Positions 297 through 60,689 of a stretch of DNA of 64,000 nt are shown piece after piece. Each line of letters begins with the position of its first letter. Positions within the stretch are counted from its first letter, which is position 1. Below the pieces are notes generated by a model that had not been told where the DNA came from, ran no database searches, and saw nothing but the letters and a program-made list of their open reading frames with translations. A program made the translations under genes and the position numbers. Location: contig JAHDCS010000001.1 of NCBI GenBank assembly GCA_020629755.1, positions 72,103-136,102 of the forward strand, read 5' to 3'. This stretch comes from Flavobacteriales bacterium. Its GTDB lineage: Bacteria > Bacteroidota > Bacteroidia > Flavobacteriales_G > JALEGO01.

Positions 297-2944
297 CGGA
301 TCAACATCACAAAACCGCTTCGGTCCATTTTTTCATCATCTATTACAGACCTGGCTTTAAGTTTATATAAATAAGTGCCTTGCTCTGCTTTATCTCCGTT
401 CTCAAATCGGCCATCCCAATGCTTATCAGGGTTGGTAGTTTGAAAAATACGTTTTCCCCATCTGTCATAAATGGAAAGCTCATAGCCCTTTAAGCCGTTA
501 TGGATGGGCTTCCATAAGGGATTATGCAAGTTTTCATTTGGCGTAAAGGCATTAGGAATATACAAATACACCTGAGAAATCACTGTATTGGAAACCGAAT
601 CCACACACCCCTGAAGATTCTCTCCCCAAAGCGTTACTGTATACTCGCCTACTTGCTGGTATCCATGATTTTCTATCGAGTCAGACCCTGTTGTGCCGTC
701 TCCAAAATCCCACCAAATAGACACCACGTCTTCCGACAGAGTACTCGTAAATTCTACATCATCAAGATCATAATAAGCAATATCAAAACTTACTTCTGGC
801 TGTGGCACATGTACCACAACAGTGTCTTTTATTATATTACCACATCCATCCGTAACAGTGACATAGATAACTTCGTCTTCACGTAATAAAACACTTAATC
901 TGTCTGTATTTACTGGCGCATAGCTCCATTGGTAATCAAAAGGCGCCACCCCACCTTGAAGAACTGAACCATCTATGGCTAAATACTCCCCAAAACAACC
1001 TATTAAAGAATCTGGTGCAGCCAACTCAATCGGAATATACGGATCTACCGTAACGGTAAACTGCGTAGTAGCAGTATCTTGAAAGCACTTGTCTGTTACT
1101 TCTATAGTATAGGTGGTCGTAACCAGAGGTGTATCTATGAGAACAGAATCAGATAACGTATTTTGCCATCCATCATAGGTATAAAAATAAGACCCAGAAC
1201 CGCCTTCGAAGAAAGGATTAACAGCAAACAAAGTACCAGGACAATCGTGATTGATATTATCAATAGGCAAAATTGAAATAGGATCAAAAAGCCCTACAGT
1301 GAATGTGTGCGAAGCCGTATCTGAGGGGCATAAATCAGAGACGTATAAGGTATAGGTATCTCCATTAAATACATCTATTGTTTTTCCTGTGCCGCTATTT
1401 CCCATTGCGCTTTCCCACCAATAATTATAAGGACTAACTCCACCAGAAATAGTCGGAAAAACTTCAACAGGTGTATTTTCACAGGCTTTAAAATCAGGCA
1501 CAAAAAGATCAATGGTAGGATCATAACTGGTAAGCATAACATCTTGAACACCATAATAAATGCCACACCCATCTGTCACTGTTACTACCAAAGACTGCGT
1601 GTTTGTAGTGTTTTGTAACCACACATAATTTGAATAGTCCCCTGTAGAATCTTGCACACCATTTGACCAATGGTATGTGAATCCGGGCACTCCTTGATTA
1701 ACTTGAATACCAACTTGAGTTGAATCTCCGGGGCAACCTGCCGTATCGTTTAAAGCCATCACCTCAATAGGTGGCGGATCAATAATGAACAATGAATCTA
1801 AAACTGCAGAAGTAACACAATTGCCTTCTAAAGCAAATGTAATGGTATCTACCCCTTCATCTATGCCATCAAAAATAGGCTCTATTTGTAGTATGATTTC
1901 ATCTTGCCCAACTGCAAAAGTGGCAGAATCCGGAAAATCTACATAATCTACTCCTTCAACAGCGTTGCCAGACGGTATAAAATAAAGGGTTGTCTCTTGG
2001 CTATTGTCTGATCTTTGAATAGAGACATCAATAGTACCACAGCCTTCATAAACTTGATTAGGCCCTAAATCAGGCGTAATGTATGAGGCCTGGGCAGATA
2101 TATCAATATTGGAAACCGCACTAAAACTTCCCTCTTCTAAAAGAATATACGACGGAAAGCTTTGATCGCTTCCATCAGCAATGGCCAGCTTTATATGATA
2201 GGTCTCTCCACAAATAACATCTGCTGAAGCAGTCAAAGGCACTGTGTATCCAGTAACATTAACGGCACCCGGATTAAAATTTTGAACATAAAAATTGTTG
2301 TTCAAAATTCCGTTTACTGAACTTATTGTAATAGGCAAGGGCGGATTTGAGCCTGGCACCACCGCAATATTTTGCGCCCCGTTAGGAAACCCCAGTGGGC
2401 TTTGATAAGGCCCTGTAATGCCTGGGCCTGAAATTAAAAAGGCAAACACGTCGTTAAAGCCTGTGTTTTCATAGGCTTCGTATTCTTCAGAGGTAAAAAT
2501 AAAGCGGAATTCAACATTGTCAGAAATAGCCTCAAAATCAAACTCTAGTATAGCAATATCATTTACCCCACTCACCAAAAAAGGCTGCCCAATTAATGGC
2601 GGAACAGAATTGGCAATGTCTAATAAATCTGGATCATTGACCGTATTTGGAATAATCATCCCCCCAAGACCAGGAGGTTCAATTTCAATAATATCATTCG
2701 TGCCAATAACCACTCCACTAGAAATTCCTAAATTGATGCCTGACGCATCAAAATACCCCAACTGAAGAGCCGACCCATTATAGGTGATATTTGAGGCTAC
2801 TACCCCATTCCCTAAGAGCACATTGTTCACTAAATTAGTGGCATTGTCATAATTCACAACAATTTGCCCTAGAAACATACTTTTAAGACATCCTATTAAA
2901 AAAAAGAAGGTTACAAATTTTTTCATGTTCAGTTTGTTTGTCAT
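293..2944 (-). CDS. Large secreted surface protein with a T9SS type B (gliding-motility-associated) C-terminal domain, a PKD-like domain and repeated 'GGxxPYxYxW' modules
   Basis: 883-aa ORF. N-terminal signal peptide 'MKKFVTFFFLIGCL'. PKD-like 'WDFGDGTTGSD'. C-terminus 'YIPNAFTPNENLHNPLWKP...YDRWGKRIF...WDGR' matches the type B sorting domain. Confidence 0.8.
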   Translation of the reverse strand: MTNKLNMKKFVTFFFLIGCLKSMFLGQIVVNYDNATNLVNNVLLGNGVVASNITYNGSALQLGYFDASGINLGISSGVVIGTNDIIEIEPPGLGGMIIPNTVNDPDLLDIANSVPPLIGQPFLVSGVNDIAILEFDFEAISDNVEFRFIFTSEEYEAYENTGFNDVFAFLISGPGITGPYQSPLGFPNGAQNIAVVPGSNPPLPITISSVNGILNNNFYVQNFNPGAVNVTGYTVPLTASADVICGETYHIKLAIADGSDQSFPSYILLEEGSFSAVSNIDISAQASYITPDLGPNQVYEGCGTIDVSIQRSDNSQETTLYFIPSGNAVEGVDYVDFPDSATFAVGQDEIILQIEPIFDGIDEGVDTITFALEGNCVTSAVLDSLFIIDPPPIEVMALNDTAGCPGDSTQVGIQVNQGVPGFTYHWSNGVQDSTGDYSNYVWLQNTTNTQSLVVTVTDGCGIYYGVQDVMLTSYDPTIDLFVPDFKACENTPVEVFPTISGGVSPYNYWWESAMGNSGTGKTIDVFNGDTYTLYVSDLCPSDTASHTFTVGLFDPISILPIDNINHDCPGTLFAVNPFFEGGSGSYFYTYDGWQNTLSDSVLIDTPLVTTTYTIEVTDKCFQDTATTQFTVTVDPYIPIELAAPDSLIGCFGEYLAIDGSVLQGGVAPFDYQWSYAPVNTDRLSVLLREDEVIYVTVTDGCGNIIKDTVVVHVPQPEVSFDIAYYDLDDVEFTSTLSEDVVSIWWDFGDGTTGSDSIENHGYQQVGEYTVTLWGENLQGCVDSVSNTVISQVYLYIPNAFTPNENLHNPLWKPIHNGLKGYELSIYDRWGKRIFQTTNPDKHWDGRFENGDKAEQGTYLYKLKARSVIDDEKMDRSGFVMLIR

Positions 2945-3082
2945 ACAAACGAAAAAAAATAATAAGGTTGCCTACAAAAATACGTCATTTGCAAAGGCAA
3001 CGCAATAAAAACCACTAAAATCAAAAGTTTTATGCTTAAAACTGACGAGCAACTGCTCAGAAATTTTTATTTTGAATGCATT

Positions 3083-3901: not shown

Positions 3902-3977
3902 TTTTTTAACAATGCACTATGAATGTTTTTTTAGGGGGGGATGGCTTGAGCAAGAAAATCAAGATTAATTTTGCTCT

Positions 3978-4949
3978 ATGCTTCGCATTGGTGTAGTTGG
4001 ATTAGGTCATCTAGGAAAGATTCATTTAAAAGTTTTAAGTGAATTACAAGAACAGTATCAAATTGTTGGTGTATACGATTCTAAAGAAGCGCTTACTAAA
4101 ACACTCGCTAAGCAATACCACACAAAAGCGTTTGACTCAATACAAGAATTAATTGATCAATCGGATGTAGTAGATGTTGTAACGCCCACACTCACCCATT
4201 TTGATATCGCCAAAGCAGCACTCAAGCAAGGCAAACATCTATTTATTGAAAAACCCATTACATATACCCTTCTTGAAGCTGAAAAACTTTTAGAACTATC
4301 TTCTGAGGCCGGAAGTGTTGTCCAAATTGGTCATGTTGAGCGCTTTAATCCGGCTTTTAAAACGGCCCAAAAATTCATTGAAAAGCCCATTTTCATTGAA
4401 GCACACAGGTTAGCACAATTTAATCCCAGAGGCACAGATGTGTCTGTTGTCTTGGATTTGATGATTCACGATATTGACATCATTTTATCTGTGATTAAAT
4501 CCCCCATAAAAAAAATAAGCGCCACGGCTGTAAAAGTCATAAGCCCTACACCTGATATTTGCAATGCCCGATTAGAGTTTGACAATGGCGCTTGCGCTAT
4601 TCTAACGGCGAGTAGAATCTCTTCTAAAAACACAAGAAAAATCCGTTTTTTTGAACCTGAAAGATATACTTTAGCTGATTTTTTACATAAAAAAGTAAAG
4701 TTATTTGGGCTTACCGATCATCCCCCCAAAGCAGCGTCAGAGATGGCCTGGAAAATTGGCACACCAGGTGTTAATGAAAAATACGTCATTAGAGACACGC
4801 CAAACGTAATGCCTTCAAATGCTATTCAAGATGAGTTTTTAGCGCTATTCAATAGCATTATACACAAACACCCCGTTATGGTAAGTATTCAAAATGGCAT
4901 GGAGTGTTTACGAATAGCAGAAGAAATACACGAAAAAACCTTGCTATAA
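3978..4949 (+). CDS. Gfo/Idh/MocA family NAD(P)-dependent oxidoreductase
   Basis: N-terminal Rossmann motif 'IGVVGLGHLGKIH' and the 'LFIEKP' motif. Size (323 aa) is typical of the family. Confidence 0.8.
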   Translation: MLRIGVVGLGHLGKIHLKVLSELQEQYQIVGVYDSKEALTKTLAKQYHTKAFDSIQELIDQSDVVDVVTPTLTHFDIAKAALKQGKHLFIEKPITYTLLEAEKLLELSSEAGSVVQIGHVERFNPAFKTAQKFIEKPIFIEAHRLAQFNPRGTDVSVVLDLMIHDIDIILSVIKSPIKKISATAVKVISPTPDICNARLEFDNGACAILTASRISSKNTRKIRFFEPERYTLADFLHKKVKLFGLTDHPPKAASEMAWKIGTPGVNEKYVIRDTPNVMPSNAIQDEFLALFNSIIHKHPVMVSIQNGMECLRIAEEIHEKTLL

Positions 4950-6464
4950 GTCTATTCTGATCCCTGCCCTAAATCCATACACATGATGCTTTTGGTTCAG
5001 CGATCCGGTATGGTAGAAGGTTGTTCTTAAAGCATGTTTATAAAATGGTGAAATAAAGAGCGATGTCTTTGAGGTCAATGATGAGATAACCGATACTGAA
5101 GCCCACAGATTTGCATTAATAGCTTGGGTTTTTGGTGCATTAAATTGGCTTTGGTTGTCAAATAAAAAATGTCCTCTGTAATTCATTTTAGTATAAGACA
5201 GCGCAAGGCCTGCTGTTGGCTGAAGCGTAAAAACCCCCATAGGCAATGCATAAGAAAACAAGAGCGGCAATTCAACACTCTTGATGCTGTAAGTGCCATT
5301 GAGTTTTGTGAGCTCTGTATTGGTTAATACTGTTGTTAAGGTGTCAATATTTTGAATATAGGTGCTATCTCTAATAACCCTAGAATACCCATTTGCAAAA
5401 AGGGTTTCTACTCCATTAATCTCGACTGTTGCATCTTGCCAAACAACAGAATCTTTAACAGAATAATAACTATTGTCGACCATCTGATGTTCAGTATAGG
5501 TAAAAGGTGTGTAGGCTATTTTTTCTTTCAAATTCTGATACTCGATACCCGTTGACATAGACCACCTTTTATGGAGTGTTTTAGATAGTAGTATTCCGCC
5601 GCCGCTCCCTAATTGAGCGCTCTCTTCTTGCGTCTTTTTTTGTTTTATTTGAGCTGAAAAACTTGGATTATAATCTGTAAATTTCATAGATGTATTCAAT
5701 AAAGCATAAACATCAAGCGTCCGTTCGGGATTCTTCTGTGCATCAAAACTCAGGGGCTCTTGTAAAGCCATCTCTGGGGTAAAAAAAGAAACAGCAAGGG
5801 GCTGAATGTTTTGATTGTCTATACGCATTACCCTTTGCGCATGTACGACTTGAGCACCTCTCTCCCAATGGCCCGTATTTATGTTGTTTGCCCGATTAGC
5901 CAAGGTGTTGTTGTTTACACTACCGTACTCTTTTTCAATATTACTCTTTGGCTTACCTGTATATTTTTTAGGTTCTGTATTTACACTTTCTTTTAACTCA
6001 CTCAAACCTTTTGTAGTTGTCATTACATTTTGAATAGCCTCACCGCTTTTCTTTGCCTGCTCTGTGCTTTGATTAAGTTTTTTATTTGGGGGGGATTTAG
6101 ATGCTTTCTGGATCTTAGTATTCAGATGTGCTTCTTTTGGCATGAAAGCTCCCTGTTTTTCTTTAACAGATAGGATACTGCGCTCTTCTTGATGCTTGTT
6201 TTGATTCAAATGATTGTTTGTTTTTAAAGCGTGTGAATGAGGATTTACTATATCAGTATTCTTATTTTCTCTTGAAAAAAAGAAAAACATCAGTCCTGAA
6301 CATACAAGACCGGTAAAGAAAAAATAAAGAAACCCTCTTTTATTAGATCTCTTATTCTGGTGGATCTGAATTTTCTCATAGACCTCATCAAAGTAGGCGT
6401 CTTTAAATTCAAATTGTTTGTGTAAGAATTCGTCTTTTATTTTATCTTCAAAGTTTTTCATCAT
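4944..6464 (-). CDS. Putative anti-sigma factor / membrane-anchored protein with a C-terminal beta-barrel-like domain
   Basis: Start overlaps the stop of the upstream ECF sigma gene by 4 nt. Short cytoplasmic N-terminus, one TM helix 'GFLYFFFTGLVCSGLMFFFF', a K/N/Q/S-rich low-complexity linker, then an aromatic-terminated beta-strand-rich C-terminus ending 'GFRAGIRIDL'. Confidence 0.5.
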   Translation of the reverse strand: MMKNFEDKIKDEFLHKQFEFKDAYFDEVYEKIQIHQNKRSNKRGFLYFFFTGLVCSGLMFFFFSRENKNTDIVNPHSHALKTNNHLNQNKHQEERSILSVKEKQGAFMPKEAHLNTKIQKASKSPPNKKLNQSTEQAKKSGEAIQNVMTTTKGLSELKESVNTEPKKYTGKPKSNIEKEYGSVNNNTLANRANNINTGHWERGAQVVHAQRVMRIDNQNIQPLAVSFFTPEMALQEPLSFDAQKNPERTLDVYALLNTSMKFTDYNPSFSAQIKQKKTQEESAQLGSGGGILLSKTLHKRWSMSTGIEYQNLKEKIAYTPFTYTEHQMVDNSYYSVKDSVVWQDATVEINGVETLFANGYSRVIRDSTYIQNIDTLTTVLTNTELTKLNGTYSIKSVELPLLFSYALPMGVFTLQPTAGLALSYTKMNYRGHFLFDNQSQFNAPKTQAINANLWASVSVISSLTSKTSLFISPFYKHALRTTFYHTGSLNQKHHVYGFRAGIRIDL

Positions 6465-8718: not shown

Positions 8719-8788
8719 CTATACGTTAAGGATTCAGAAAAAGGGCCAAAAAAATATCTTTTTTTCAGTCATTTCTTATTTTTGTGTC

Positions 8789-10054
8789 GTGGAACTATAT
8801 GCCAAAGCCTTACTTTATGCCATTCCTTTCTTTTTAATCCTCATTTTTATTGAAGAAGTAGTAGCGCGTGTGATGGGCAAAAAAGTAAACCACTCTTTAG
8901 ACACTGTCTCTTCTTTGAGCTCTGGAATGACCAATACCTTAAAAAAACTATTGGGCTTAAGCATCGTTATTTTTAGTTATGATTTTTTTGTAGAACACCT
9001 TGCTTTGTTTACTATAGAATCAAAGCCTATCAATTATATTTTAGCCTTTATAGGTCTTGATTTCGCAGGTTATTGGGGGCATCGTTTTAACCATAAGATT
9101 AATGTGCTTTGGAATCGGCACATTATTCACCACAGTTCAGAAGAATTCAATCTGGCTTGCGCCCTTAGACAAAGCGTTTCTGAAACCGTTGCTATTTACA
9201 CCTTTTTAGGCATTCCGATGGCTATAATCGGAATTCCTTATCAAATTATTGTTACCATCGCGCCCATTCATTTATTCGCGCAATTCTGGTATCACACTCG
9301 GCTTATTGATAAAATGGGTGTTTTAGAATATCTTATTGTGACCCCTTCTCATCATCGTGTACACCATGCGATTAATCCAGAATACATCGACAAGAATTTT
9401 GCGCAAATTTTTATTATTTGGGATAAACTTTTCGGAACGTTTCAAAAAGAAGAAAACCACATCCCCCCAGTATACGGCATTACAAGACCTGTGGGCACCT
9501 GGAACCCTATTTTAATCAATTACCAACACATGTGGCTGTTGCTAAAAGATGCCTTTCACACCAAAAGCCTTAAAGAAAAGCTAAGCCTCTGGTTTAAACC
9601 TACTGGATATAGGCCAAATGATGTCAAAGATTTATATCCCCCCGAAAAAATAGACGACCCTTACAAACAAATTAAATATTCCTCAGAGCCCGACGGTCTT
9701 TTACATGCCTACAGCTGGATGCAGCTGATCATTCACAATATACTTTTAGTACATCTTTTATCTAGTGTCTCAATGCTTTCAAAACAAGCGCTTTCTTTAT
9801 ATGTGATTTTTCTTTTTGTGTCTGTGTTTGCCTTTACGAGCATTATGGATAGGCGTTTAATAGGCAAAGTATTTGAAGGCTTAAAGCTTGTTATGGCGGT
9901 CTGCATTTTATTTTACTTCAAAGATTGGTTTGGGCTTTCTAGTATTTTTTCTGTCGGATTATTTTTACTGGGCGGATATCTTTTGCTTTCATTTATATTA
10001 GGAATGATCATCCGGCCTATTTCTGTAAATAAAACACCCGGAATATTGACATAA
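8789..10054 (+). CDS. Sterol desaturase / fatty-acid hydroxylase family membrane protein
   Basis: Histidine boxes 'HRFNHK', 'HIIHHSSEE' and 'HHRVHH'. The track ORF starts at 8675 but overlaps the convergent upstream gene; the in-frame GTG at 8789 ('ELYAKALLYAIPFF') is the more plausible start. Confidence 0.75.
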   Translation: MELYAKALLYAIPFFLILIFIEEVVARVMGKKVNHSLDTVSSLSSGMTNTLKKLLGLSIVIFSYDFFVEHLALFTIESKPINYILAFIGLDFAGYWGHRFNHKINVLWNRHIIHHSSEEFNLACALRQSVSETVAIYTFLGIPMAIIGIPYQIIVTIAPIHLFAQFWYHTRLIDKMGVLEYLIVTPSHHRVHHAINPEYIDKNFAQIFIIWDKLFGTFQKEENHIPPVYGITRPVGTWNPILINYQHMWLLLKDAFHTKSLKEKLSLWFKPTGYRPNDVKDLYPPEKIDDPYKQIKYSSEPDGLLHAYSWMQLIIHNILLVHLLSSVSMLSKQALSLYVIFLFVSVFAFTSIMDRRLIGKVFEGLKLVMAVCILFYFKDWFGLSSIFSVGLFLLGGYLLLSFILGMIIRPISVNKTPGILT

Positions 10055-10737: not shown

Positions 10738-10739
10738 AG

Positions 10740-11174
10740 ATGCTGTACAAAGCCATTCCGATTGCGCTTTTAGCTGGCGTTAAACTTTTTTTTACAGCCC
10801 CAGTTGCATTAGCTGCTGGTTTTACTAAGTTTGAATCATTCATCATTTTAGCCACCGGAGGGTGTTTAGGTATTTTGGTTTTTTATTTTTTTGGGGGGAT
10901 GATTACCCACCTAATAGCGTCACAAATACTAGCCTACTGGGGTAAAAAATCAAAACGCTTTTCTAAAACCTCTCGACTAACCGTCAAAATAAAGCGGCGT
11001 TCTGGCATCTACGGCATAGCCTTTTTAACCCCTTGTATTTTATCTATCCCGATTGGAAGCATTGTCGCTTACAATTATTATAGAAAAAACGCAATGACTT
11101 TACCCTTATTATTAAGCAGCACTATTTTATGGAGTTTTTTAGCGGTCATCATCTGGGGATTTATTCCGTTTTGA
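10740..11174 (+). CDS. Small polytopic membrane protein, function unknown
   Basis: 144 aa with about 4 hydrophobic helices. Starts 2 nt after the upp stop. Confidence 0.5.
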   Translation: MLYKAIPIALLAGVKLFFTAPVALAAGFTKFESFIILATGGCLGILVFYFFGGMITHLIASQILAYWGKKSKRFSKTSRLTVKIKRRSGIYGIAFLTPCILSIPIGSIVAYNYYRKNAMTLPLLLSSTILWSFLAVIIWGFIPF

Positions 11175-15199: not shown

Positions 15200-16271
15200 T
15201 CAGCAGTGTCTTTAATTTTTGTGCCGTATCATCCCAACTAAATCGTTTAAGGTTAATCTTGGCCTTTTGCGCCAAGGCTTCCCTTAGGTTTTGTGCTAAA
15301 ACCAGCTGCATTTTTTGCGCTATCTCTTCAGTATCTTCCGGATCGCAATAAAGCGCCGCATCACCTCCAATTTCAGGCATAGATGAGGTATTTGAAGTAA
15401 TGACCGGAACACCAAAATGCATCGCTTCTAATATTGGCATACCAAATCCCTCCAAAAAAGACACATACAACAGTGCTTTTGCTCCAGAAAGATAATGCGC
15501 ATATTCGCTATCAGATATCCGCCCAAGAAAAACCACACTGTCTTTAAACTTTGAGCTCTTAAATTCTTTTTTAATCAACTTAGAATTGCCTCTACCAGCA
15601 ACATAAAATTTAAGCCCTTGCGTGTCAGTCTCTTTAAATCTTAAAAAAGCCTGAATTTGTCGTTTAATGTTTTTGCGCTCATTTAAGTTGCCAATGAAGA
15701 AAAAATAATGCTCTGAATGTTTTAAGCTTGGAGCGGGCAAACGCCTTATGCCGTTATATAATACGGTAATGTTTTTTGGGGGGATGTTATACTGCTTAGC
15801 AATATCTTGCTGGCAATACGCCGATACACTACAAAGTTTTGAGGCGGCCTTGGCATAACGCTTAAAAAAAACACTGTAAAACCATTGGTGTGAACCCTTA
15901 TAGTGCTGCGGATAATGAAGGAAATGAATGTCGTGTAAAAGAACAATGGACTTAATCGGATTTAATAATTGCCCAAAGCCTTCTAAAGAAATAAAAACAT
16001 CGGCCTTTATTTCTCTGAGTTTCTTGTTGACCTTATACTCAAACCAATACGCCCATAAAATAGGATGGCGTGCTTTAGGGCTTAGTACAACAGGGATAAT
16101 ATTTTTTTGATACACAAAAGACGCATCAAAGCTTCTATCAAAGAAAAAATAAAAGGTATGCTCAGGCAAAAGCTTAACAAGGCGCTGTAGAATTTCGTGT
16201 TTTACATAGCCAATACCCTCTAACTTATCTTGAATAAGTAAGCGCGCATTAACCCCTATGATTTTTGACAA
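15180..16271 (-). CDS. Glycosyltransferase, GT4/GT1 (GT-B fold) family
   Basis: C-terminal half 'EGFGMPILEAMHFGVPVITSNTSSMPEIGGDAALYCDP' is the EX7E-type GT4 motif. Confidence 0.8.
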   Translation of the reverse strand: MSKIIGVNARLLIQDKLEGIGYVKHEILQRLVKLLPEHTFYFFFDRSFDASFVYQKNIIPVVLSPKARHPILWAYWFEYKVNKKLREIKADVFISLEGFGQLLNPIKSIVLLHDIHFLHYPQHYKGSHQWFYSVFFKRYAKAASKLCSVSAYCQQDIAKQYNIPPKNITVLYNGIRRLPAPSLKHSEHYFFFIGNLNERKNIKRQIQAFLRFKETDTQGLKFYVAGRGNSKLIKKEFKSSKFKDSVVFLGRISDSEYAHYLSGAKALLYVSFLEGFGMPILEAMHFGVPVITSNTSSMPEIGGDAALYCDPEDTEEIAQKMQLVLAQNLREALAQKAKINLKRFSWDDTAQKLKTLLNELVGV

Positions 16272-23886: not shown

Positions 23887-23890
23887 CATC

Positions 23891-41631: not shown

Positions 41632-43782
41632 TTAATTTATAAGGCCTACTATTCTTGGGATGTTCCAAATGTTTTTTCTCAAAGGGTTAAAATTGTTTCT
41701 CTTTAACTGCCATTCTTCACGTGCCCAAAAATGTAAATTTGACACCGGAAATAAATAGCCAAATTTATAAGCGGTTGCGCTTTTCTTTCGCCTTGCCAAT
41801 TGCTCTACATCATACCTGTATAGGCCTTCTAGTGCTTGTACATACCTCAGGCTTTTTTCTCGTATTTTTTTAGCTGAATCTAAGTAATGTACTGCTTTTT
41901 TCTTTTTTGAATACGATGCTATATACTGTAATGTATTTGCTTTATGTGCTGCTCTTTGAGCGGTTAATTGCAAAGCCAATACAAGCTCTTTTTTTAACTG
42001 AACTATCTGCTCTGAAACCTTTTGATCCTCTATTTTATAAGCCAAGTCTTTAAGTTGCTTACTGTATTCAAAAAGCGGCAATGCGACATGCAGGCGCAAA
42101 GAATCTCTTTGTGCAGCATTGTACTTCCTAAGCATGTGTTTATAAGTATGTTTTGGCCTAGGTACAAACTCTATATTGAATCTTCCAAAAAGCTCATCGG
42201 TCGGTTGCGCAGCGGTGATATAGCGAATTAAGCCTTTTTTAATCAAATATTCTTCTTGAAGCTGATGTACAGAATCAAATAAACGTGTGATCTGATTATT
42301 GCGATACACCTTTTCAATGGGGTCTAAAAAACTGCTCTTTTTATGCGTTGTCCAAGACCAATTTGCAATGGCCCAATCAAACATCCAGTGTGAAAACTCC
42401 CATCCGCTTGTAAAGGTCAAATGCCCATTAACGCCTAAAGAATCTGTGAGCAAAATGTCTCTATGTCGGCGCGACAGATATTGAGAAAAATAATTGGGTA
42501 TGCTATTATCAAACGTAATCCAGTACGCTGATTCTGGATAGTACCAGGTTTCTCTTTCTGTTAATTTATGAGATAACACATCATACATGTGTGTTAAGTT
42601 TTTGCTCCCATAATTTGGCGCTATACTGTCTTTTAGACCATAACTCATAACTGTATGCACCATTGAGCCTATGTTTTGTTCTATCTTTTTATGACCAGGC
42701 TCTAAATAGTTTGTTCTATGGGTATTTGAAAGCATATTTTCTTTTTTAACAACATGCTTTCTACTCATCACTTTAGCGTTGTAGGTTGAAGAAATATAAT
42801 CTGCAATCCATAGCATCTTTTTTTGCTTTTTTGTGGTATTGCCTTCTGTAAACTCAGTTGTAGAAAACTCAATGTTGTAGAGGTTAAATCCAATAGCTGC
42901 TAAACGATCTATATGTCTTTTGATCTGCTTGTCTTTTTTTCGGAGGGATGCAGGAAAGCTTTTGTATAACATATACGCTTTTTGTTGTATCATGTGCAGT
43001 GAAATATCTATCCCCACTAAAATACCCCTTTGATGCGCGTAGGCTACAATTTTTTTTGCATAATGGGGCCAACGCTTAGCGTTAATAGATTCTAAAAGAG
43101 AAAATTCAAAATAATTTTGTCTATTTCGAGCCAACCAATCAATGTACCTCTTTACTTCTTTTAAGCTAGAATCAGATGGCACTAAAAGATGTTCTGTCAA
43201 CTCTAAAGGATGTTGGGTGTGTAAATGAAATCCTTTAATTCTAAATCTTGGTTGTGAAGAAAAGTCGCTCTGTAATAGCTTCTGAACAGATAATGGTTTA
43301 TGATAAATTGTTTGTTTTGGGTGGATGAAATATACGCCTAATGCATCATGCAAAAAACCGTATAACCCATGAGATATTCCAATATCAGACCTGCAAGAGA
43401 GAATGCAAACAAGCGTGTCTTTTACTTTATTTACTGACCATGTATAGGCGTGGTCAGCAAAAGAAAGTTCTTGGTATCCCTTAGAAAAATCATACTGCTT
43501 TTCTAGTTCTTTTGTAAACCTTGAGGAGTCCGTAAGCTCAGGCAAGATTACCTGAAAAACATTGATCTTAGATAGTGTTAAAACCTCATTTAACTGTAAC
43601 GTTTGTAATTGAAAATCTTGAATGGCAAGCCTAACAGCCTGGTTGTTCTGATAATACTCTTGATGAACAAACTCTATTTTTTGCGTTTTAGTTTGACTAA
43701 AAACTTGCGAAGAAAAAACAATCAGTAAGCCTCCGTATAATACCCTCTTTATAATGTGATTATTTACCTTAGTCAATAACAA
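41632..43782 (-). CDS. Conserved hypothetical secreted protein; weak resemblance to GH20-type N-domain + TIM-barrel glycosidases
   Basis: Signal peptide. 'GISHGLYGFLHDALGVYF' and 'PRFRIKGFHLH' resemble the GH20/DUF4838 domain junction, but no catalytic motif was confirmed. Its start overlaps the adhesin gene's stop by 14 nt. Confidence 0.35.
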   Translation of the reverse strand: MLLTKVNNHIIKRVLYGGLLIVFSSQVFSQTKTQKIEFVHQEYYQNNQAVRLAIQDFQLQTLQLNEVLTLSKINVFQVILPELTDSSRFTKELEKQYDFSKGYQELSFADHAYTWSVNKVKDTLVCILSCRSDIGISHGLYGFLHDALGVYFIHPKQTIYHKPLSVQKLLQSDFSSQPRFRIKGFHLHTQHPLELTEHLLVPSDSSLKEVKRYIDWLARNRQNYFEFSLLESINAKRWPHYAKKIVAYAHQRGILVGIDISLHMIQQKAYMLYKSFPASLRKKDKQIKRHIDRLAAIGFNLYNIEFSTTEFTEGNTTKKQKKMLWIADYISSTYNAKVMSRKHVVKKENMLSNTHRTNYLEPGHKKIEQNIGSMVHTVMSYGLKDSIAPNYGSKNLTHMYDVLSHKLTERETWYYPESAYWITFDNSIPNYFSQYLSRRHRDILLTDSLGVNGHLTFTSGWEFSHWMFDWAIANWSWTTHKKSSFLDPIEKVYRNNQITRLFDSVHQLQEEYLIKKGLIRYITAAQPTDELFGRFNIEFVPRPKHTYKHMLRKYNAAQRDSLRLHVALPLFEYSKQLKDLAYKIEDQKVSEQIVQLKKELVLALQLTAQRAAHKANTLQYIASYSKKKKAVHYLDSAKKIREKSLRYVQALEGLYRYDVEQLARRKKSATAYKFGYLFPVSNLHFWAREEWQLKRNNFNPLRKNIWNIPRIVGLIN

Positions 43783-46700: not shown

Positions 46701-47926
46701 ATCCAATTGTAAATTGACATAAGTTCATTTCGAGCTGAATCAGCTGTAAAATAGTATAAACTATCCGCGCCTAAAAACAATCCATTTTGCACATTTTGTA
46801 CAGACCACCCTATTAAGGTTTGGTCATAATTTTGTTGATTTAAGCCTGAAAAAGAAAGCATTTTTGTGAGGTTATTTGCCTCTGAAATATCCCAAGCGCT
46901 TAATGGCTGATTAAAACTTTCAGCCCTATGAAAGACATATGAAAAATCACTGATATTACTGACATTAAAATGGGTAACCGATTGATTAAATGAGAGTGCC
47001 ATATCAAACATCCCTTTCATTGAATTTGCAGATGAAGTATTCCAATTTGTGAGAGGCTTGTCAAACATTGAAGCCTCTTGAAACATTTCTCTAAAATCTT
47101 GTACATTTTGTGTGTTCCAAGCAGAAACATCTCCATTAAATACGCTAGCCCCTTTAAACATCTGATGCATATCGACAACATTAGCGGTATTCCAGCTGTT
47201 AAGTGGCTGGTTAAAGGCCGTTGCATTATTAAACATTGAATGAAAATATTGAGCACTAGACGTATTCCATGAACCTATTGGTTGGTTAAAACTCTCTGTG
47301 CCTAAAAACATAGAAGAAAAATTAACCCCTAAGGCTGTGTTCCAGCTACTGATGTTGCTATTAAAGGCATGGCAATTAAAAAACATCCCCCCAAAATTTG
47401 TAGCTTGAGAAACATCCCAACCACTTAAATCTCCATTAAACAAATAACACTGACTAAATGCAAAAGAAAAATCTGTAGAGGCTGACAAATCAGGAGTATC
47501 TGTAGCTGAAGAGGTTAGATTCGCACATCCAGAAAACGCATTTGACATACTTTGCCATTTTATATCTCCCCATTGTTCAATATTTAAAATCTTCTCTTTA
47601 TCTCCGGTGTTAGAAAAAGCAATATACTGTATTGCATCATTAGGATTTGCTGATGGAGTTATGCTAATGCTATAAATCCCTGCAGACGGAAATGTAACTG
47701 TATACAGATCACTTACTAAACCCTCTGTTCCGTTGTTTGAAGGATTTGCTACTTCTTGCCAGTCAATGGTGTAATCACCAAATGCCGGTATCCGCATTTG
47801 ATTCATCGCGCTAGTTCCTGGCAGTTCAGTATTACAGGTCGTAATAAAAGGTGACTGTGAAAGAAAAACAAGGGGCAACACAACAGATGCCACCATCGGT
47901 AAAAAAAACTTTAGAGTATTCGTCAT
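43769..47926 (-). CDS. Giant T9SS type A surface adhesin: N-terminal BspA-like (DUF285) LRR repeats + about 8 SprB-type repeats
   Basis: Repeated 'F..c..FN..l..WNts.v..m..MF' units (DUF285/BspA type). Repeated 'GANDG.A...vsGGt.PY...WSNG' units. C-terminus 'IRIYDAFGKALY...SGMYWLYIE'. The ATG at 47926 (signal peptide 'MTNTLKFFLPMVASVVLPLVFLS') is preferred over 48019, which overlaps rsmG. Confidence 0.8.
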   Translation of the reverse strand: MTNTLKFFLPMVASVVLPLVFLSQSPFITTCNTELPGTSAMNQMRIPAFGDYTIDWQEVANPSNNGTEGLVSDLYTVTFPSAGIYSISITPSANPNDAIQYIAFSNTGDKEKILNIEQWGDIKWQSMSNAFSGCANLTSSATDTPDLSASTDFSFAFSQCYLFNGDLSGWDVSQATNFGGMFFNCHAFNSNISSWNTALGVNFSSMFLGTESFNQPIGSWNTSSAQYFHSMFNNATAFNQPLNSWNTANVVDMHQMFKGASVFNGDVSAWNTQNVQDFREMFQEASMFDKPLTNWNTSSANSMKGMFDMALSFNQSVTHFNVSNISDFSYVFHRAESFNQPLSAWDISEANNLTKMLSFSGLNQQNYDQTLIGWSVQNVQNGLFLGADSLYYFTADSARNELMSIYNWIIINDDLNFTSSCLNNTLIVNAWLFDTLCLSGDFRIGGNPSVTGGLEPYAIEWITDYTVEDPNALNPLITPNSSINFGYNNCVLKVTDAQGCVKLDTVVILTQGSPSPVQAFNHLHTQTYGDTVCTSKPALEMGGIEPFGSSAPPYTYQWIGQELSSNSILHPTLNVSNLSDGYHNYELILYDATNCYGYDKITVFKNSSFIAEAHVLDSVCTTDSLYLGASPTAVGGTGDYSYQWSEVPEIQNLDYLTNYTSENTTVIPMVFPLGFQLEVIDNQTGCSASDYVYVNTQNCNACSNFQASVSTTNETASNASDGTANVTALGGNGNFNYIWSNGANGNSISGLSTGWYSVTVTDSLLCSIVDSGFVDVNLSIGPCDSLNPLLVNSNLIASESVSGANDGEAEVMVSGGTSPYNVTWSNGFTGFVISGVASNTYTATVEDSLGCIKVASIFIPLDSSSGGNPTGPCDSLNPLLVSSNLIASESVSGANDGVAEVMVSGGTSPYNVTWSNGFTGFVISGVASNTYTATVEDSLGCIKVASIFIPLDSSSGGNPTGPCDSLNPVVINVNSIMNETSTGANDGFAQLSISGGTTPYGITWSNGSIGVSLDSVASGTYAVTVTDDSGCVATLSVFIPVDSTMTDPCSTFLVDVTTQNTSAIGANDGSASAFVVGGTPPYAYTWQTGDTTSSISNLSTGTYTLNVLDANSCVFSGLVSIGVDSSGTNPCDLIVSLSTTDVSAVGAMDGSASAFASGANQPYGYSWSNGSNTPLISGLSIGVYYITVQDAIGCSVEDSVQIYDPQTNPCPGFSVGISTTNASVLGSSDGSVELTPNGGVFPYSYFWNTTDTTATLANISSGTYFVTITDNQQCEETAIITIGVEDSTAVGIDIGAHQAPAIYLRSNPIVDQRLILSGVNYKTPGRLKIRIYDAFGKALYSEDFYAHASEFEHTILVHTISSGMYWLYIEELKSLHYKTIPFVID
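45031..45570 (-). repeat. Two tandem 270-bp units (~96% identical) inside the adhesin gene
   Basis: 45031..45300 against 45301..45570. A central stretch of more than 150 bp is identical in manual alignment. Encodes two 90-aa SprB-type repeats that differ at 2 residues. Confidence 0.9.
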
Positions 47927-49219: not shown

Positions 49220-50317
49220 TTATTGTCTTTTATGCCAGGGCAAAAATTTCATCCCCCAAAATATAGGATAGAAAAGTATAACAAGAAATTCGAATATCAA
49301 AGCAAAGTGTTGTAAATCATTTTCTTTTAGAGATTTAAAATAAGACTTGTAAAAGAAAAAGCCAGTGCTTACTCTAAGTATAAACGTTAAGAATACTAAC
49401 CCGGTTAAGGTATTTGTGAGTGCAATGCCTAAAAAAAACATCCACCAAAATAATTTCAAATGAAAATTCAAAAAAGAAATTGTCTTAGACACCCATGAAT
49501 AGTAAGATGCTGTGGTTAAGTGGCGTGCTTTTTGTTTAATCCAATTTTTTAACGTTTTAGGGGGGATGGAAAGGGTAAATGACAAAGGATCTGTAAGATT
49601 GTTAATGGGGATATCACCTTGTTTTTCAACCAACAAATCATCATCACCAGAGTCTAATTCAGGCACTACAATTTGAGGATTGTCTAAAAGAACGTCTTTA
49701 TGATAGATTAAATTTCTTCCAACGGCTGAATACGCAAAGCCCATTTGATTCCAAAAAAAATAATCCGCAGCGATTAGGGCCGTGTCAAAACGGATTAACT
49801 TATTCAATAATCCTGGCAATTTTTGATAGGCTCCATACCCAATATATATTTCTTTTTTGTTATTTTTTTGACGCAGTTCTTTGGCAATGGTGTGCAGCCA
49901 CTCTTTAGACTTAGGCACACAATCAGCATCCGTATGTACTACCCAATCGTGATTTGCCTTTGATACTCCGAACCAAACGGCCTGTTTTTTACCTTTATGG
50001 GTCTTGCAATATGTTTCAAGTTCTATGTATCGAATTCTAAAGGGTGTTTTGTCTAACCATTGAAAAGGGACCTTCTGATCTAAATCAGAAAAATCATCTA
50101 TAACAATCAGCTCAAAATTTAGATGCGACTGGGCTCTAAGTGCCTGAAGGAGTCGCTTAACGTTATCTACTTCATTTCTATAACACACTACTACACTTAA
50201 TGGAAATTCCTGATCATAAGACCTCTGAGGTAGATCAAACACCTTGTGTTTGCTAGCAATTTTAACCCCTTCTAAAAGAATGAGTGCAATAGAGAATATT
50301 AAAAATAAAACAACCAC
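49220..50317 (-). CDS. GT2 family glycosyltransferase (membrane-associated)
   Basis: 'LSVVVCYRNE', 'LIVIDDFSD' and 'TDADC' motifs, with C-terminal TM helices. Confidence 0.75.
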   Translation of the reverse strand: MVVLFLIFSIALILLEGVKIASKHKVFDLPQRSYDQEFPLSVVVCYRNEVDNVKRLLQALRAQSHLNFELIVIDDFSDLDQKVPFQWLDKTPFRIRYIELETYCKTHKGKKQAVWFGVSKANHDWVVHTDADCVPKSKEWLHTIAKELRQKNNKKEIYIGYGAYQKLPGLLNKLIRFDTALIAADYFFWNQMGFAYSAVGRNLIYHKDVLLDNPQIVVPELDSGDDDLLVEKQGDIPINNLTDPLSFTLSIPPKTLKNWIKQKARHLTTASYYSWVSKTISFLNFHLKLFWWMFFLGIALTNTLTGLVFLTFILRVSTGFFFYKSYFKSLKENDLQHFALIFEFLVILFYPIFWGMKFLPWHKRQ

Positions 50318-52047: not shown

Positions 52048-52073
52048 AGCCCCGGCGTGCCGGGGCTTTTTTA
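52048..52073 (+). terminator. Bidirectional rho-independent terminator shared by convergent genes
   Basis: Stem agccccgg/ccggggct (8 bp), 4-nt loop, followed by a T-run. Overlaps the stop codon of the minus-strand OmpA-family gene. Confidence 0.75.
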
Positions 52074-53993
52074 TTTCAAGACCTCAATCTCAACCCTTCT
52101 ATTTTTTGCCTTTCCTTCTTGAGTAGAATTATTGGCAATCGGATTTTTCATCCCCATACCAACATACGTTAATCGATCAGGAGAAACATTCTGTTTCTTT
52201 AAAAACATCACCACTTCTTTAGCACGTTTTTCAGATAAAATCTGATTCTGTACCACGTTGCCCGCATTATCTGTATACCCAACTATTTTTATTTTTAGTT
52301 TCATATTTTCTTTTAAAGTATTCACTAACTGATTTAACTGATCAAAAGAAGTTTCTAAAATAGCATGTGAATTTGTTCTAAAATATAAGTTGTCAAGTAC
52401 TAGCGATTTTCCTGGAAGCAAAGTCTCAATAGGCAAAGGAAGCTTTTCATCTTTTAGATCTAAAAATTTTAAACTTACTTCTTGCTTAGGTAATTTTTGA
52501 AACCTAAACCTGCCGTTTTCATCTACCAAACCTGAATGTGAATACATCAACACTTGTTTTTCATCATTTAAATACGCCATCTCCACATAATGTTGGCTCT
52601 GTGCATTCTCTATTTGAACCGAATACCCTTTACTTGGGTTTAAATCTTCAAATGTAAACACCCCTTTTTCACTTGTTTTTTCTTCTTTTAACATCTCATT
52701 TTTATAATCAAATAATTGCACCAATACCCCTTGAGATGCTATTGAGGGCTCTTGCCTATCAACGACTTTTCCGTGAATTACTGTCTTATTTTTTTCTACG
52801 TTAACAGACTCAAAGCTACTTTCTCTAAAAAGCTTAAACGGATTAGGCTCCTCTTTTTTAATGCTTAGCTCTGCTTGGTTGGTTTGAGAAAAACTACTTG
52901 CCACAATTCTGTTTTCTTGGTCAACCAGAAAAACCTCTAGCTCAACAGGTAATGGTGTTTGTATTTTTATCAGATACTCTTTTTGCTTTGGTAGTTTTTC
53001 AAACTCAAAATCACCGGCAAGACTTGCTTTTGTAGAGGCTATCTTTTTTTGTGTGTCTTTGTCATATAAATCTACCTCTAGTGCGGTACTGTTTTGGGGG
53101 GATGTAATCTTTCCAATAATTTTTGAATCCCCTTTTATGGCAATAGATTGTGTTTGGTCTACACATATTAAAAATGGGCCTTTTCCTTTTTGGGGATCTC
53201 TATGATCTACACTGATATAATAGGTCTGACCAGGAATGAGCCCATAATACAACAACTCCGCTCTTTTTTTACTTGTAAACTTACCAAATGCTTGTTCCTG
53301 AACATCTTTATCAAATAGGCCAATTATCGGGTACTCTAGATACGCCTTTTCTCCACCAGGTTTAACCTCAATTTTAACACCTGTGTTTTTTGCCTTAAAG
53401 GTATACCACACATTTTGGTGTGCGCCATTTTTTAAATACGATACGCCCGGATAGCTTCCCATAAAAGAATGTACAGCAAGTAGTTTTTCACTGCAGTATT
53501 TTTCTTGGGTAATTTCTTTCGCAAATTTATACGATCCCTGATCTATTTGAGTGTTAATACAAAATCCGAAAGTAGCATTTTTGTTAGGATAATTACTCAA
53601 AACAGCGATATAATAATTTTTCTTTTTTTCAAGTTTATTGTAGGCAATACCAATGGTTCGTTCGTGGCCCTTTTGTATTGTACAAATGATTGGTTTTTTT
53701 TGATCATCCATCAGATATATTGCTGGATCTTTAATGGCGTTTTTCCCTTCAGAAACCCGAACAGAAAAATCAACAAAGCTCGTTTTTGCTTTAAACGTAA
53801 AAAAGCGAACATACTTAAACGTTCCTGAAAAACACTCCGTCTTTTCTATATCAATCTCCAGAGGCTCCAATGAGAATTCTTTGTGTGCGTCAGAACAGTA
53901 ATTAATCAGTTCTGGTGGTTGTGTTTCTGTGTGGGATTGCAACAACACCAACATGGCTATTCCCCCTAAAAGTATACCCCTTTTTATTCTCAT
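52071..53993 (-). CDS. OmpA-family (peptidoglycan-binding) protein with a long N-terminal beta-rich region
   Basis: C-terminal OmpA_C domain: 'LYFRTNSHAI', 'GYTDNAGNVVQNQILSEKRAKEV' and 'NRRVEIEV'. Confidence 0.8.
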   Translation of the reverse strand: MRIKRGILLGGIAMLVLLQSHTETQPPELINYCSDAHKEFSLEPLEIDIEKTECFSGTFKYVRFFTFKAKTSFVDFSVRVSEGKNAIKDPAIYLMDDQKKPIICTIQKGHERTIGIAYNKLEKKKNYYIAVLSNYPNKNATFGFCINTQIDQGSYKFAKEITQEKYCSEKLLAVHSFMGSYPGVSYLKNGAHQNVWYTFKAKNTGVKIEVKPGGEKAYLEYPIIGLFDKDVQEQAFGKFTSKKRAELLYYGLIPGQTYYISVDHRDPQKGKGPFLICVDQTQSIAIKGDSKIIGKITSPQNSTALEVDLYDKDTQKKIASTKASLAGDFEFEKLPKQKEYLIKIQTPLPVELEVFLVDQENRIVASSFSQTNQAELSIKKEEPNPFKLFRESSFESVNVEKNKTVIHGKVVDRQEPSIASQGVLVQLFDYKNEMLKEEKTSEKGVFTFEDLNPSKGYSVQIENAQSQHYVEMAYLNDEKQVLMYSHSGLVDENGRFRFQKLPKQEVSLKFLDLKDEKLPLPIETLLPGKSLVLDNLYFRTNSHAILETSFDQLNQLVNTLKENMKLKIKIVGYTDNAGNVVQNQILSEKRAKEVVMFLKKQNVSPDRLTYVGMGMKNPIANNSTQEGKAKNRRVEIEVLK

Positions 53994-59629: not shown

Positions 59630-60689
59630 ATTTTAGTATTTGTTGATGAAAATTCTCTTTATCTGACGCGTCAAAATCAATGGTTATCGGAAGCACATAA
59701 AAAGGCAATTCAAATAGTTTTTTTGCAAAATTGAGATGTTTCAACCGAGTCACATCTTTTTGCGTGGTCAAAATTATTTTATTTATCCCATAAAATGCAT
59801 TAAATAAATCATAAATTTTATTGACATCCTTCTTGCTAAACGCATGATGGTCTTTAAACTTAAGATGCTCAAGCTTATTTACTTTCATTTTGATATGATA
59901 AAAAATATGTTCAGTATGCGCAATACCCGTAAAAAGAAATACAGATGTCTTCTTATTCAGACTATGTTTATAGTTAAATGCATGGAGTGGTTTAATGCTC
60001 TTATATACAATATGGCTGAAAAATAAATGCTGATGTGTCCCTGGATTTAACTGTTCTTTAATAAGTCTTTTTTCAATTGGGGGGATGCTATTAAATCCTC
60101 CAGTTACTATAATAATGTCTGCTCGTCTTGCGTTTGCTTTTGCTTCTCTTAAAGTCCCTAAAGGAGCAATAAAATCTTTGGTATAAAGTTTATCGCTGCG
60201 TGTTAGTAAAATCATTAAGCCTGTCGATAGTTTTCTGTGCTGAAACACATCGTCTAACACTACTGCTTTTACATTTTTTTTTTGCTCCACTATATTTTGA
60301 ACTCCCCGCACCCTACTTTGATCTACAAAGACTAAACTCTCAGGATTTAATTCTTTTATCATAATAGGCTCATCGCCAAATTGATCAGATGTGACTAAGC
60401 CATTTTTGACTTCTAAAAAGCCTTTTGTATTTCTGCCATATCCACGTGATAAAAAAGCAATGTTTTTATCTGGATGAAAATTTTTGATTAAAAACTCAAT
60501 AATGTATGATGCGTGTGGCGTCTTCCCCGTTCCACCAAAACTTAAATTGCCTACTCCTATTGTTTTGATTTCAGACTCAAATGAAAATGATTTAAACACC
60601 CCGAAATCATAGAATATATTTCTAAAAAAGGTCAGAATATACCACATAAAGCCGACAGGGCTTAGTAAAATGTATTTTAATCCTCGCAA
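59613..60689 (-). CDS. lpxK: Tetraacyldisaccharide 4'-kinase
   Basis: P-loop 'VGNLSFGGTGKTP', then 'LSRGYGR' and 'DDVFQHR'. Confidence 0.9.
   Translation of the reverse strand: MRGLKYILLSPVGFMWYILTFFRNIFYDFGVFKSFSFESEIKTIGVGNLSFGGTGKTPHASYIIEFLIKNFHPDKNIAFLSRGYGRNTKGFLEVKNGLVTSDQFGDEPIMIKELNPESLVFVDQSRVRGVQNIVEQKKNVKAVVLDDVFQHRKLSTGLMILLTRSDKLYTKDFIAPLGTLREAKANARRADIIIVTGGFNSIPPIEKRLIKEQLNPGTHQHLFFSHIVYKSIKPLHAFNYKHSLNKKTSVFLFTGIAHTEHIFYHIKMKVNKLEHLKFKDHHAFSKKDVNKIYDLFNAFYGINKIILTTQKDVTRLKHLNFAKKLFELPFYVLPITIDFDASDKENFHQQILKYVRSN

Follow-up and report, generated by a model that had tools for sequence, protein, structure and literature searches.

A strand-symmetric, frame-independent G-run word iterated in a Flavobacteriales genome segment and resembling DNA uptake sequences

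The sequence analysed here is a 64 kb stretch (hereafter the window; 36.8% GC) of contig JAHDCS010000001.1 from the Flavobacteriales bacterium assembly GCA_020629755.1. It carries ordinary Bacteroidota chromosome genes such as secA, thrS, infC, rplT, obg, adk, lpxK and coaX, along with hemA/C/D, exbBD, gidB, glycosyltransferases and cargo of the type IX secretion system (T9SS) with CHU_C, Por_Secre_tail and SprB domains. Spread over these genes is a short iterated word, T-run/GGGGGGATG in brief, made up of a T-rich 5' side, GGGGGGAT and then (G), which is the subject of this analysis. A direct scan found 24 G/C runs of ≥6 nt (10 G-runs and 14 C-runs), 20 of which have AT directly 3' of the run as read on the G strand, the exceptions being those at 18239, 34432, 59534 and 61257; run counts, coordinates and the AT rule all agreed with a preliminary description of this DNA made from its letters alone. 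Exact matches to GGGGGGAT numbered 20 (9 on the + and 11 on the - strand), vs 0.59 (maximum 4) expected from dinucleotide shuffles and 0.65, 1.2 and 2.3 under Markov models of orders 2, 3 and 4, respectively. Under each of these Markov orders GGGGGGAT was the top-ranked 8-mer by over-representation, its excess ranging from 9-fold (codon shuffles) to 34-fold (dinucleotide shuffles), that is, roughly 10–30-fold. Perfect copies occur once per 3.2 kb (0.31 per kb), or at ~0.5 per kb when one-off forms are included, with the + and - orientations interleaved throughout the window; the gaps between sites (mean 3.0 kb, coefficient of variation (CV) 0.86) fit random placement, with no regular spacing. 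The word, GGGGGGAT / ATCCCCCC, is not self-complementary, i.e. not palindromic, and no inverted pairs of it were present in the window. GC skew in the window tracked gene orientation, with no clear origin or terminus switch.

Alignment of the 20 copies showed six invariant G followed by A and T, with G next in 15/20, and a T share of 67% at positions -13 to -7 vs a background of 31.6%, so that both the ATG continuation and the T-rich 5' side noted previously were recovered. The full word can be written as ~T5-7, an optional spacer base, exactly six G, AT and usually G, the strict core holding ~19 bits and the T-rich flank ~3 bits; beyond ~17 nt around the word the aligned copies shared no sequence similarity and formed no hairpin. 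A looser pattern (T4+, 0-2 nt, G4+, AT), which takes in G4/G5 look-alikes, matched 17 sites vs ~1 in order-2 simulations. The spectrum of G/C run lengths in the window was non-monotonic (142 runs of 4, 14 of 5, 20 of 6, 3 of 7 and 1 of 8), and a length of exactly six is therefore favoured. As a separate observation, the runs of 5 were rarer than the ~30-35 predicted by a geometric fall-off, as if extended to 6.

The G5 and G4 look-alikes pointed out in the preliminary description at 4501, 23488, 49253, 19625 and 40141 were all present, with the same T-run and ATG (Table 1). Single-mismatch forms were ~5-fold enriched at run positions 3 and 4 only, changes at either end of the word being at expectation. 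Specifically, GGAGGGAT occurred in 9 copies in the window vs ~0.8 expected and GGGCGGAT in 5 copies vs 0.7-1.2 expected, and the T-run was kept in ~12 of the position 3-4 variants and in all 3 G5 forms. This enrichment, together with the kept T-run, suggests that a functional word tolerates changes in the middle of the run, or that it decays there most often. A Shine-Dalgarno-like GGAGG was rejected as the cause of the GGAGGGAT excess, just one copy lying upstream of a start codon as judged from the positions.

The sites were mapped onto 48 open reading frames (ORFs) that make up 93.9% of the window. Nine were sense, 10 antisense and one intergenic (1/20 vs 1.2 expected), and six codon-phase contexts were represented: GGM/GGI, [R/G]GD, xGG*, IPP, [H/Y]PP and xSPx. 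The intergenic site at 3935 and the one spanning a stop codon (GGG-GGA-TAG) had both been described correctly, and the proposed check of strand and frame yielded, within the window, a 9:11 strand ratio, no transcription bias and these six contexts. The codons that build the word are not preferred ones, with GGG accounting for 19% of Gly, CCC for 16% of Pro, CGG for 5% of Arg and TCC for 3% of Ser in the window, and neither GGG nor CCC is thus the favoured codon for its residue. Nineteen of the 69 peptide contexts in which synonymous choice permits the word carry it, vs 1.46 predicted from codon usage, and it was used at GGM 4/5 times and at IPP 5/6. Synonymous-codon shuffles within genes gave 2.19 ± 1.36 copies (maximum 8 in 2000 shuffles) and codon-order shuffles 0.90 (maximum 5), vs 19 observed in ORFs; the codon-controlled observed/expected ratio, for which a value near 1 had been named beforehand as contradicting a DNA-level feature, was ~9 within the window. 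Word-compatible peptides were themselves in excess, numbering 69 vs 45.5 ± 6.5 in residue-shuffled proteins, with 0/1000 shuffles reaching 69. The word is a DNA-level feature rather than a codon or peptide effect, in agreement with the preliminary description, and since its excess is paid for in rare codons and altered residues, a genome-wide sequence-biased process is suggested. A promoter, terminator or RNA role was rejected on the grounds of the random orientation relative to genes and the lack of a hairpin.

Seven sites (30580, 30107, 9461, 9636, 38654, 39658 and 47385) were compared with orthologues, the last three in the region syntenic with the relative GCA_020631045.1; one was purely synonymous, one involved a conservative change and five involved amino-acid replacements in variable segments. 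At 30580 the conserved YWRGD of ThrRS is recoded in a purely synonymous way, reading CGG GGG GAT in the window vs AGA GGA GAT or CGT GGA GAC in relatives. In a variable stretch of the same protein (30107), the window has TSPLKK, from the reverse complement of TTTTTTTAGGGGGGATGT, where relatives have STKITE, LPIHAD or RAIESD, and both the word and its T-run were imposed via amino-acid change. The two fatty-acid hydroxylase sites comprise 9461, where the orthologues have [V/E]PP and the window IPP, the site being made by CCC CCC and a V->I change, and 9636, where KYP[V/I/W]x of the orthologues corresponds to LYPPEK in the window, with residues altered in a variable segment. In the syntenic region, YIPPKY at 38654 stands against YVPDAF / YISSAH in the orthologues, a C-terminal GG* at 39658 against GH* (the orthologues ending GGC CAT / GGA AGA), and FGGMFF at 47385 against NLTMTF. 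No indels relative to the orthologues were seen at the seven sites. The word, T-run included, was written by point substitution, not insertion, through synonymous changes in constrained parts of the proteins and amino-acid changes elsewhere. Whether orthologous positions keep the word, a question raised at the outset, thereby received a partial answer: at 0/7 positions was it present in the relatives, these being distant (≤82% ThrRS identity).

Table 1. Copies of the word and its variants, with other features of the window and the sites of one parallel contig. Positions are those of the window unless a contig is named.
Feature	Position	Strand	Location
GGGGGGATg	2658..2665	-	sense frame 0 (GGM), T9SS-cargo ORF 293-2944
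Core with G7, T7 run upstream (tttttttaGGGGGGGATg)	3935..3942	+	intergenic: ORF end 3901, next ORF start 3978
GGGGGGATg	4720..4727	-	antisense (HPP), GFO/IDH/MocA oxidoreductase ORF 3978-4949
Core with G7 (GGGGGGGATt), T-rich upstream	6089..6096	+	antisense (SPP), ORF 4944-6464
GGGGGGATg	9461..9468	-	antisense (IPP), fatty-acid hydroxylase ORF 8675-10054
Core ttttttcGGGGGGATa	9636..9643	-	antisense (YPPEK), fatty-acid hydroxylase ORF 8675-10054
Core tttttttGGGGGGATg	10893..10900	+	sense frame 0 (FFGGM), small membrane-like ORF 10731-11174
Core ttttttGGGGGGATg	15778..15785	+	antisense (IPPK), GT4 glycosyltransferase ORF 15180-16271
Core with G8 (ttttatGGGGGGGGATg)	22968..22975	-	~60 nt into ORF 21750-23036, or immediately 5' of it should translation really begin at the ATG of the word
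GGGGGGATt	23187..23194	-	sense frame 0 (GGI), type III pantothenate kinase ORF 23009-23761
Core tttttttaGGGGGGATg	30107..30114	-	antisense (TSPLKK), thrS
cGGGGGGATg	30580..30587	+	sense frame 1, CGG GGG GAT of conserved YWRGD, ThrRS
GGGGGGATt	35094..35101	+	sense frame 0 (FGGI), membrane ORF 33921-35984
Core tttttttcGGGGGGATg	36591..36598	-	sense frame 0 (FFGGMFF), signal-peptide-like N-terminus, ORF 35999-36619
Core ttttGGGGGGATg	38654..38661	-	antisense (YIPPKY), glycosyltransferase ORF 38291-39496
GGGGGGATa	39658..39665	-	across stop codon (GGG GGA TAG), ORF 39656-40450
Core ttttGGGGGGATg	47385..47392	-	sense frame 0 (FGGMFF), SprB/DUF285 T9SS protein ORF 43769-48019
Core ttttaGGGGGGATg	49560..49567	+	antisense (IPPK), GT2 glycosyltransferase ORF 49220-50317
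Core ttttGGGGGGATg	53096..53103	+	antisense (TSPQ), OmpA-family ORF 52071-53993
GGGGGGATg	60079..60086	+	antisense (IPP), lpxK ORF 59613-60689
Short-run version T8-at-G5-AT	4499..4515	-	
Short-run version T7-c-G4-ATg	19626..19639	-	
Short-run version T6-a-G5-ATg	23481..23494	+	
Short-run version T6-a-G4-ATg	40136..40148	+	
Short-run version T4-G5-ATg	49251..49261	-	
One-off variant GGAGGGAT, T6 run upstream	15446..15453	-	
One-off variant ttttttttgGGAGGGATg	20375..20382	-	
One-off variant tttttttcGGAGGGATg	42942..42949	+	
One-off variant gtttgttttGGGTGGATg	43319..43326	+	
One-off variant gttttttGGGAGGATa	63823..63830	-	
One-off variant gttttttGGGAGGATc	22877..22884	-	
One-off variant tttttcttGGGCGGATa	15517..15524	-	
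Five TCGGGGGAT and the seeded T10-G6-ATG	284, 3367, 6065, 6513, 7676, 8875		contig JACCDU010258837.1 (L255)
220-nt direct repeat, two copies	27939-28158 / 29850-30069		flanks Schlafen/AlbA_2-HTH gene 28248-29774
12-nt tandem repeat GGTCGGAGAAAA	29525-29599		inside the AlbA_2-HTH gene
tRNA-Phe	23814-23887		
10-nt GGTGCGGGAG pair	23878 and 23992	-	tRNA-Phe 3' end and a site ~110 nt downstream
Palindrome GCGTACGC	12149, 29072, 31096		

Among species-representative genomes the best match to the window ThrRS (74% identity) came from an uncultured Flavobacteriales metagenome-assembled genome (MAG), and in a 5.8-billion-protein collection the window ThrRS, hydroxylase and Obg are represented by one record each. 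The nearest relatives found were GCA_020631045.1 (82% ThrRS and 78% Obg identity) and GCA_020628935.1 (77% and 72%). A 37 kb sample of the former held 1 copy of the word, which lacks the T-run, vs 11.6 expected at the density of the window, and a 43 kb sample of the latter held 0 copies; GGAGGGAT was absent from both samples. In other Bacteroidota, the 80 comparison loci returned by the ThrRS scan of species-representative genomes (1.42 Mb in total) carried the word at chance level, with 13 copies and a density of 0.58 per 64 kb. A scan of viral contigs for TTTTTTGGGGGGATG gave at least 120 matches, single chance ones, with no enriched contig among the matches listed, and a metagenome scan for TTTTTTGGGGGGATGTT gave, among the matches listed, mostly chance hits, with no relative of the window and only a ~2-fold excess of extra copies overall. 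The enrichment thus appears limited to the lineage of the window itself, for which the searched databases contain no close relative. No account of such a word in Bacteroidota turned up in the literature searches, in keeping with the earlier statement that no motif of this kind is described for Flavobacteriia; string searches with GGGGGGAT and ATCCCCCC gave only primers and barcodes, and nothing relevant came up for Chi or uptake sequences in Bacteroidetes or for octamers in Hymenobacter.

Other words built on a G-run were found elsewhere in the phylum. An unbiased 8-mer screen of the 80 comparison loci, rather than a search for the word, singled out a locus of the cultured isolate Hymenobacter ginkgonis HMF4947 (NZ_WQKZ01000001.1:1350068-1372002, 56% GC), where GGGGGTAG/CTACCCCC occurs in 15 copies in 22 kb (7 +, 8 -) vs a Markov-3 expectation of 1.4. 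Here too the copies run both sense and antisense to genes and fall in all frames, with one across a stop codon and another intergenic; 14 are in ORFs, where synonymous shuffles give 1.62 ± 1.18. Loci of two other species of the genus, H. antarcticus and H. jeongseonensis (L028 and L035), had 0 copies of GGGGGTAG. The second parallel, L255, is a 10.4 kb metagenome contig (JACCDU010258837.1, 38% GC) obtained in the TTTTTTGGGGGGATGTT metagenome scan and Flavobacteriales-like going by an M1 peptidase that shares 50% identity with the enzyme of a Flavobacteriales MAG. The contig holds 5 copies of TCGGGGGAT vs 0.04 expected, each behind a T-rich stretch and coding for FSGD in sense or IPR/IPP in antisense. 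At least three Bacteroidota sequences therefore have strand-symmetric, frame-independent words on a G5 core, with differing flanks. Separately, a 2.7 kb contig (JGI 3300001102) whose Obg is 75% identical to that of the window has two GGGGGGTA (at 1247 and 2018), which could be another G-run word, 2.7 kb being too short to judge. Several T-rich + G6 runs within 1-10 kb were also seen in the metagenome contigs L320/L289 (one organism, 32% GC), L227, L236, L263, L296 and L315, for instance 6 such runs over 10 kb of L320 and 4 over 1 kb of L227, their 3' flanks varying. In Echinicola pacifica DSM 19836, GGGGGAT occurred 6 times in 15.5 kb vs ~1 expected; with 80 loci screened, so weak a signal may be chance.

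From an excess of roughly 10–30-fold that overrides both codon usage and protein sequence, we infer a genome-wide sequence-biased process, or molecular drive; upkeep by selection on each individual site is unlikely. The reading that we tentatively place first, by analogy with the uptake signal sequences (USS) of Pasteurellaceae (core AAGTGCGGT) and the DNA uptake sequences (DUS) and dialects of Neisseriaceae, is that the word might be a DNA uptake signal spread by biased uptake and recombination. A competence system would preferentially bind or import fragments carrying the G-run word, homologous recombination of the imported fragments would spread new copies through the population, and the spread would continue up to the point where mutation and protein constraint offset the drive. 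The fuzzy T-tract may aid binding or bending, the role ascribed to the AT-rich flanks of Haemophilus USS, and the differing G-run words of H. ginkgonis and L255 would represent dialects of a single recognition module. The uptake reading is favoured because the word is short and asymmetric, with a strict core and a fuzzy T-tract (USS also have a fuzzy AT-rich flank), and because dialect-like words share a core across lineages of the phylum, much as DUS dialects do. It is further favoured because mismatched forms show the graded over-representation that Bakkali demonstrated in uptake sequences (PMC1939737), and because Riemerella columbina, also of the Flavobacteriales, is naturally competent and prefers its own DNA, its uptake motif being not yet known (PMC7965970). 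The word also resembles USS and DUS in its strong over-representation (hundreds-fold to tens-fold), in the equal use of both orientations, in lying inside genes in all frames and in its imprint on protein sequence. It differs from them in its phylum (Bacteroidota), in its sequence (a homopolymeric G6 core) and in its density, the perfect copies and those including one-off forms both falling short of the roughly 1 per kb of USS/DUS.

Several points weigh against an uptake word. None of the window's 48 ORFs is a competence gene (comEC, comEA, comF, dprA or a secretin). The USS and DUS known so far are common to whole families, whereas the relatives at 82% and 77% ThrRS identity have no such enriched word. 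DUS/USS are relatively enriched between genes, with DUS often in terminators, whereas the word shows no intergenic enrichment and no terminator preference. In addition, the sample comprises 64 kb of one genome and 10-22 kb samples of the two parallels, and L255 was found by searching for the word, so that its likeness is partly by construction.

Ranking close behind the uptake word, although we regard it as doubtful, is a word of the type of HIP1 (highly iterated palindrome 1; GCGATCGC). Here a DNA methyltransferase with methyl-directed or biased mismatch repair would turn near-matches into the word, or selection on nucleoid or chromosome structure would act, as proposed for cyanobacterial HIP1. 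HIP1 is 15-300-fold over-represented (vs 9- to 34-fold here) and found in and between genes in any frame, with no RNA or peptide role and its function unknown (PMC5861425); like it and other HIPs of cyanobacteria, the word of the window is an over-represented octamer independent of frame and strand. Elhai classed uptake sequences and HIPs together as over-represented oligomers and tied the HIP variants of single species to the gain or loss of particular methyltransferases, the exceptions carrying alternative words (PMC4390886). The presence or absence of the window word at species level fits this link, and the excess of GGAGGGAT (= ATCCCTCC), a transition variant, could mark an often-deaminating methyl-cytosine. 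However, HIPs are palindromes that contain methyltransferase sites, whereas the window word is asymmetric and has a fuzzy T-rich flank, normally missing from such sites, and a G5 core common to three lineages is not expected of unrelated methyltransferases. HIP1 also occurs in most of a phylum and is kept between orthologues, whereas the window word appears confined to a single lineage and none of the seven compared sites is kept in relatives as distant as 77-82% ThrRS identity. The window encodes no methyltransferase acting on DNA, the sole methyltransferase being the rRNA enzyme GidB. GGATG, which we take to be the sole sub-word recognised as a restriction-modification site (FokI-type), is at expectation in the window (89 vs 67-107), and a FokI-type restriction-modification signal was rejected for this reason.

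An improbable alternative is a binding site of an abundant sequence-specific DNA-binding protein (a nucleoid-associated protein, a factor in segregation or condensation, or one that marks self DNA for a defence system), kept by per-site selection. Although the strict core, exact run length and orientation-independent spread would fit a recognition site, and Xu et al. favour a structural role for HIP1 (PMC5861425), a density of 1 per 3.2 kb extrapolates to roughly a thousand sites over the genome, each of which would have a minute fitness effect, and effects this weak are unlikely to override codon usage and change proteins; nor is the spacing regular.

Homopolymer-driven mutation, in which slippage or dislocation mutagenesis extends G-runs, or phase-variable contingency tracts would agree with the small variation in run length (G5 to G8) among copies with the same flanks and with the clustering of variants within the run. 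Both are largely refuted, and very improbable, given the run-length peak at exactly 6, the same 3' AT in 20/24 long runs (15 with ATG) and the 5' T-run, while A/T runs in the window show no comparable anomaly and relatives of equal GC content are without these runs. Housekeeping genes (thrS, lpxK, coaX) host sites at all relative positions with frames intact. Contingency tracts are likewise G/C runs inside genes, but are usually longer, few, located in surface or restriction genes and variable in their flanks, as opposed to the constant length and flanks of the runs here, their housekeeping hosts and their density of about 1 per 3 kb.

A polar chromosome word, either a Chi-like recombination hotspot or an orienting sequence of the type of KOPS (FtsK-orienting polar sequences) or AIMS (architecture imparting sequences), scarcely merits credence. 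These are G-rich 5-8-mers every few kilobases, and a G-rich 8-mer at ~1 per 3 kb is similar to Chi densities. However, Chi (RecBCD/AddAB) and KOPS/AIMS function in one orientation, are strongly co-oriented with replication and are only few-fold over-represented, whereas the two orientations here are interleaved at kilobase scale, with no clear origin or terminus switch in GC skew to account for it. Both are excluded because the word lacks polarity, and the preliminary view of an uptake or HIP1-like word rather than Chi holds as a resemblance, given the interleaved 9:11 orientations, the 9 sense and 10 antisense sites and the random spacing.

We give equally little credence to a sequencing or assembly artefact, through systematic base-calling errors at a modified motif or poly-G artefacts, even though the source appears to be one lone NCBI assembly with no close relatives to compare it with: reading frames stay intact at every site, the G-runs encode residues required by conservation (RGD in ThrRS, PP in the hydroxylase), errors would not make a T-rich flank and ATG, and two independent sequences, one of them that of a cultured isolate, have analogous words. 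Least credible of all, and refuted within the window, are a codon, dipeptide or peptide preference (Gly-Gly-Met, Ile-Pro-Pro), for which GGM and IPP are each few-fold commoner than composition predicts but which is countered by six frame/strand contexts, an excess that outlasts synonymous-codon shuffles and the use of rare codons, and remnants of a dispersed mobile repeat (MITE, REP or NTS type), countered by the lack of similarity beyond ~17 nt, of a hairpin and of indels vs orthologues and by 95% of sites lying in ORFs. Dispersed elements of this sort (REP, MITE, NTS/dRS3) have ≥20 bp of conserved sequence, are present as insertions, and as a rule form a hairpin and lie between genes. Ssn/NTS site-specific single-stranded DNA nuclease repeats were rejected as well, those being 30-bp palindromic repeats clustered around particular genes, unlike the word.

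Some further features of the window were noted in passing. The two copies of a 220-nt direct repeat, 95% identical and 1911 nt apart, flank a Schlafen/AlbA_2-HTH gene, and the second extends over the region upstream of thrS and ~106 nt from the start of its coding sequence, which looks as if an insertion had duplicated the 5' end of thrS. Inside the same gene, the 12-nt tandem repeat (~5 copies) encodes a short repeated peptide. The 10-nt pair shared by the tRNA-Phe 3' end and a site downstream may be an integration-site remnant or simply chance. The palindrome GCGTACGC was found at 3 sites vs ~0.2 expected (6 vs 0.4-0.5 on both strands), small numbers that may also be chance.

To our knowledge, few bacterial groups have been described as carrying hyper-iterated short words, the cases being USS in Pasteurellaceae, DUS in Neisseriaceae and HIP1 in cyanobacteria, where they either expose a genome-wide process such as sequence-specific DNA uptake or biased repair or stay an unsolved puzzle. 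With a clean example in Bacteroidota, paralleled in a cultured Hymenobacter and in a Flavobacteriales-like contig from a metagenome, the phenomenon would reach a new phylum. More speculatively, and at a level of confidence below that given to the uptake reading, Bacteroidota may hold an unrecognised sequence-specific genome-writing drive keyed to G-run words, whose lineage-specific dialects may include T-run-G6-ATG in the window, T-run-TC-G5-AT in L255 and G5-TAG in H. ginkgonis. If true, this would amount either to a new system of biased conversion or to the first case of DNA-uptake specificity beyond the Proteobacteria, and its strength would suffice for recoding conserved genes and changing protein sequences. 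For Flavobacteriales, competence is on record but no uptake signal is known, and the cultured H. ginkgonis makes the question testable. In any event, such a word offers a ready-made species marker for binning and skews analyses of codon usage and dN/dS; should it drive uptake, it could make Bacteroidota genetically more tractable.

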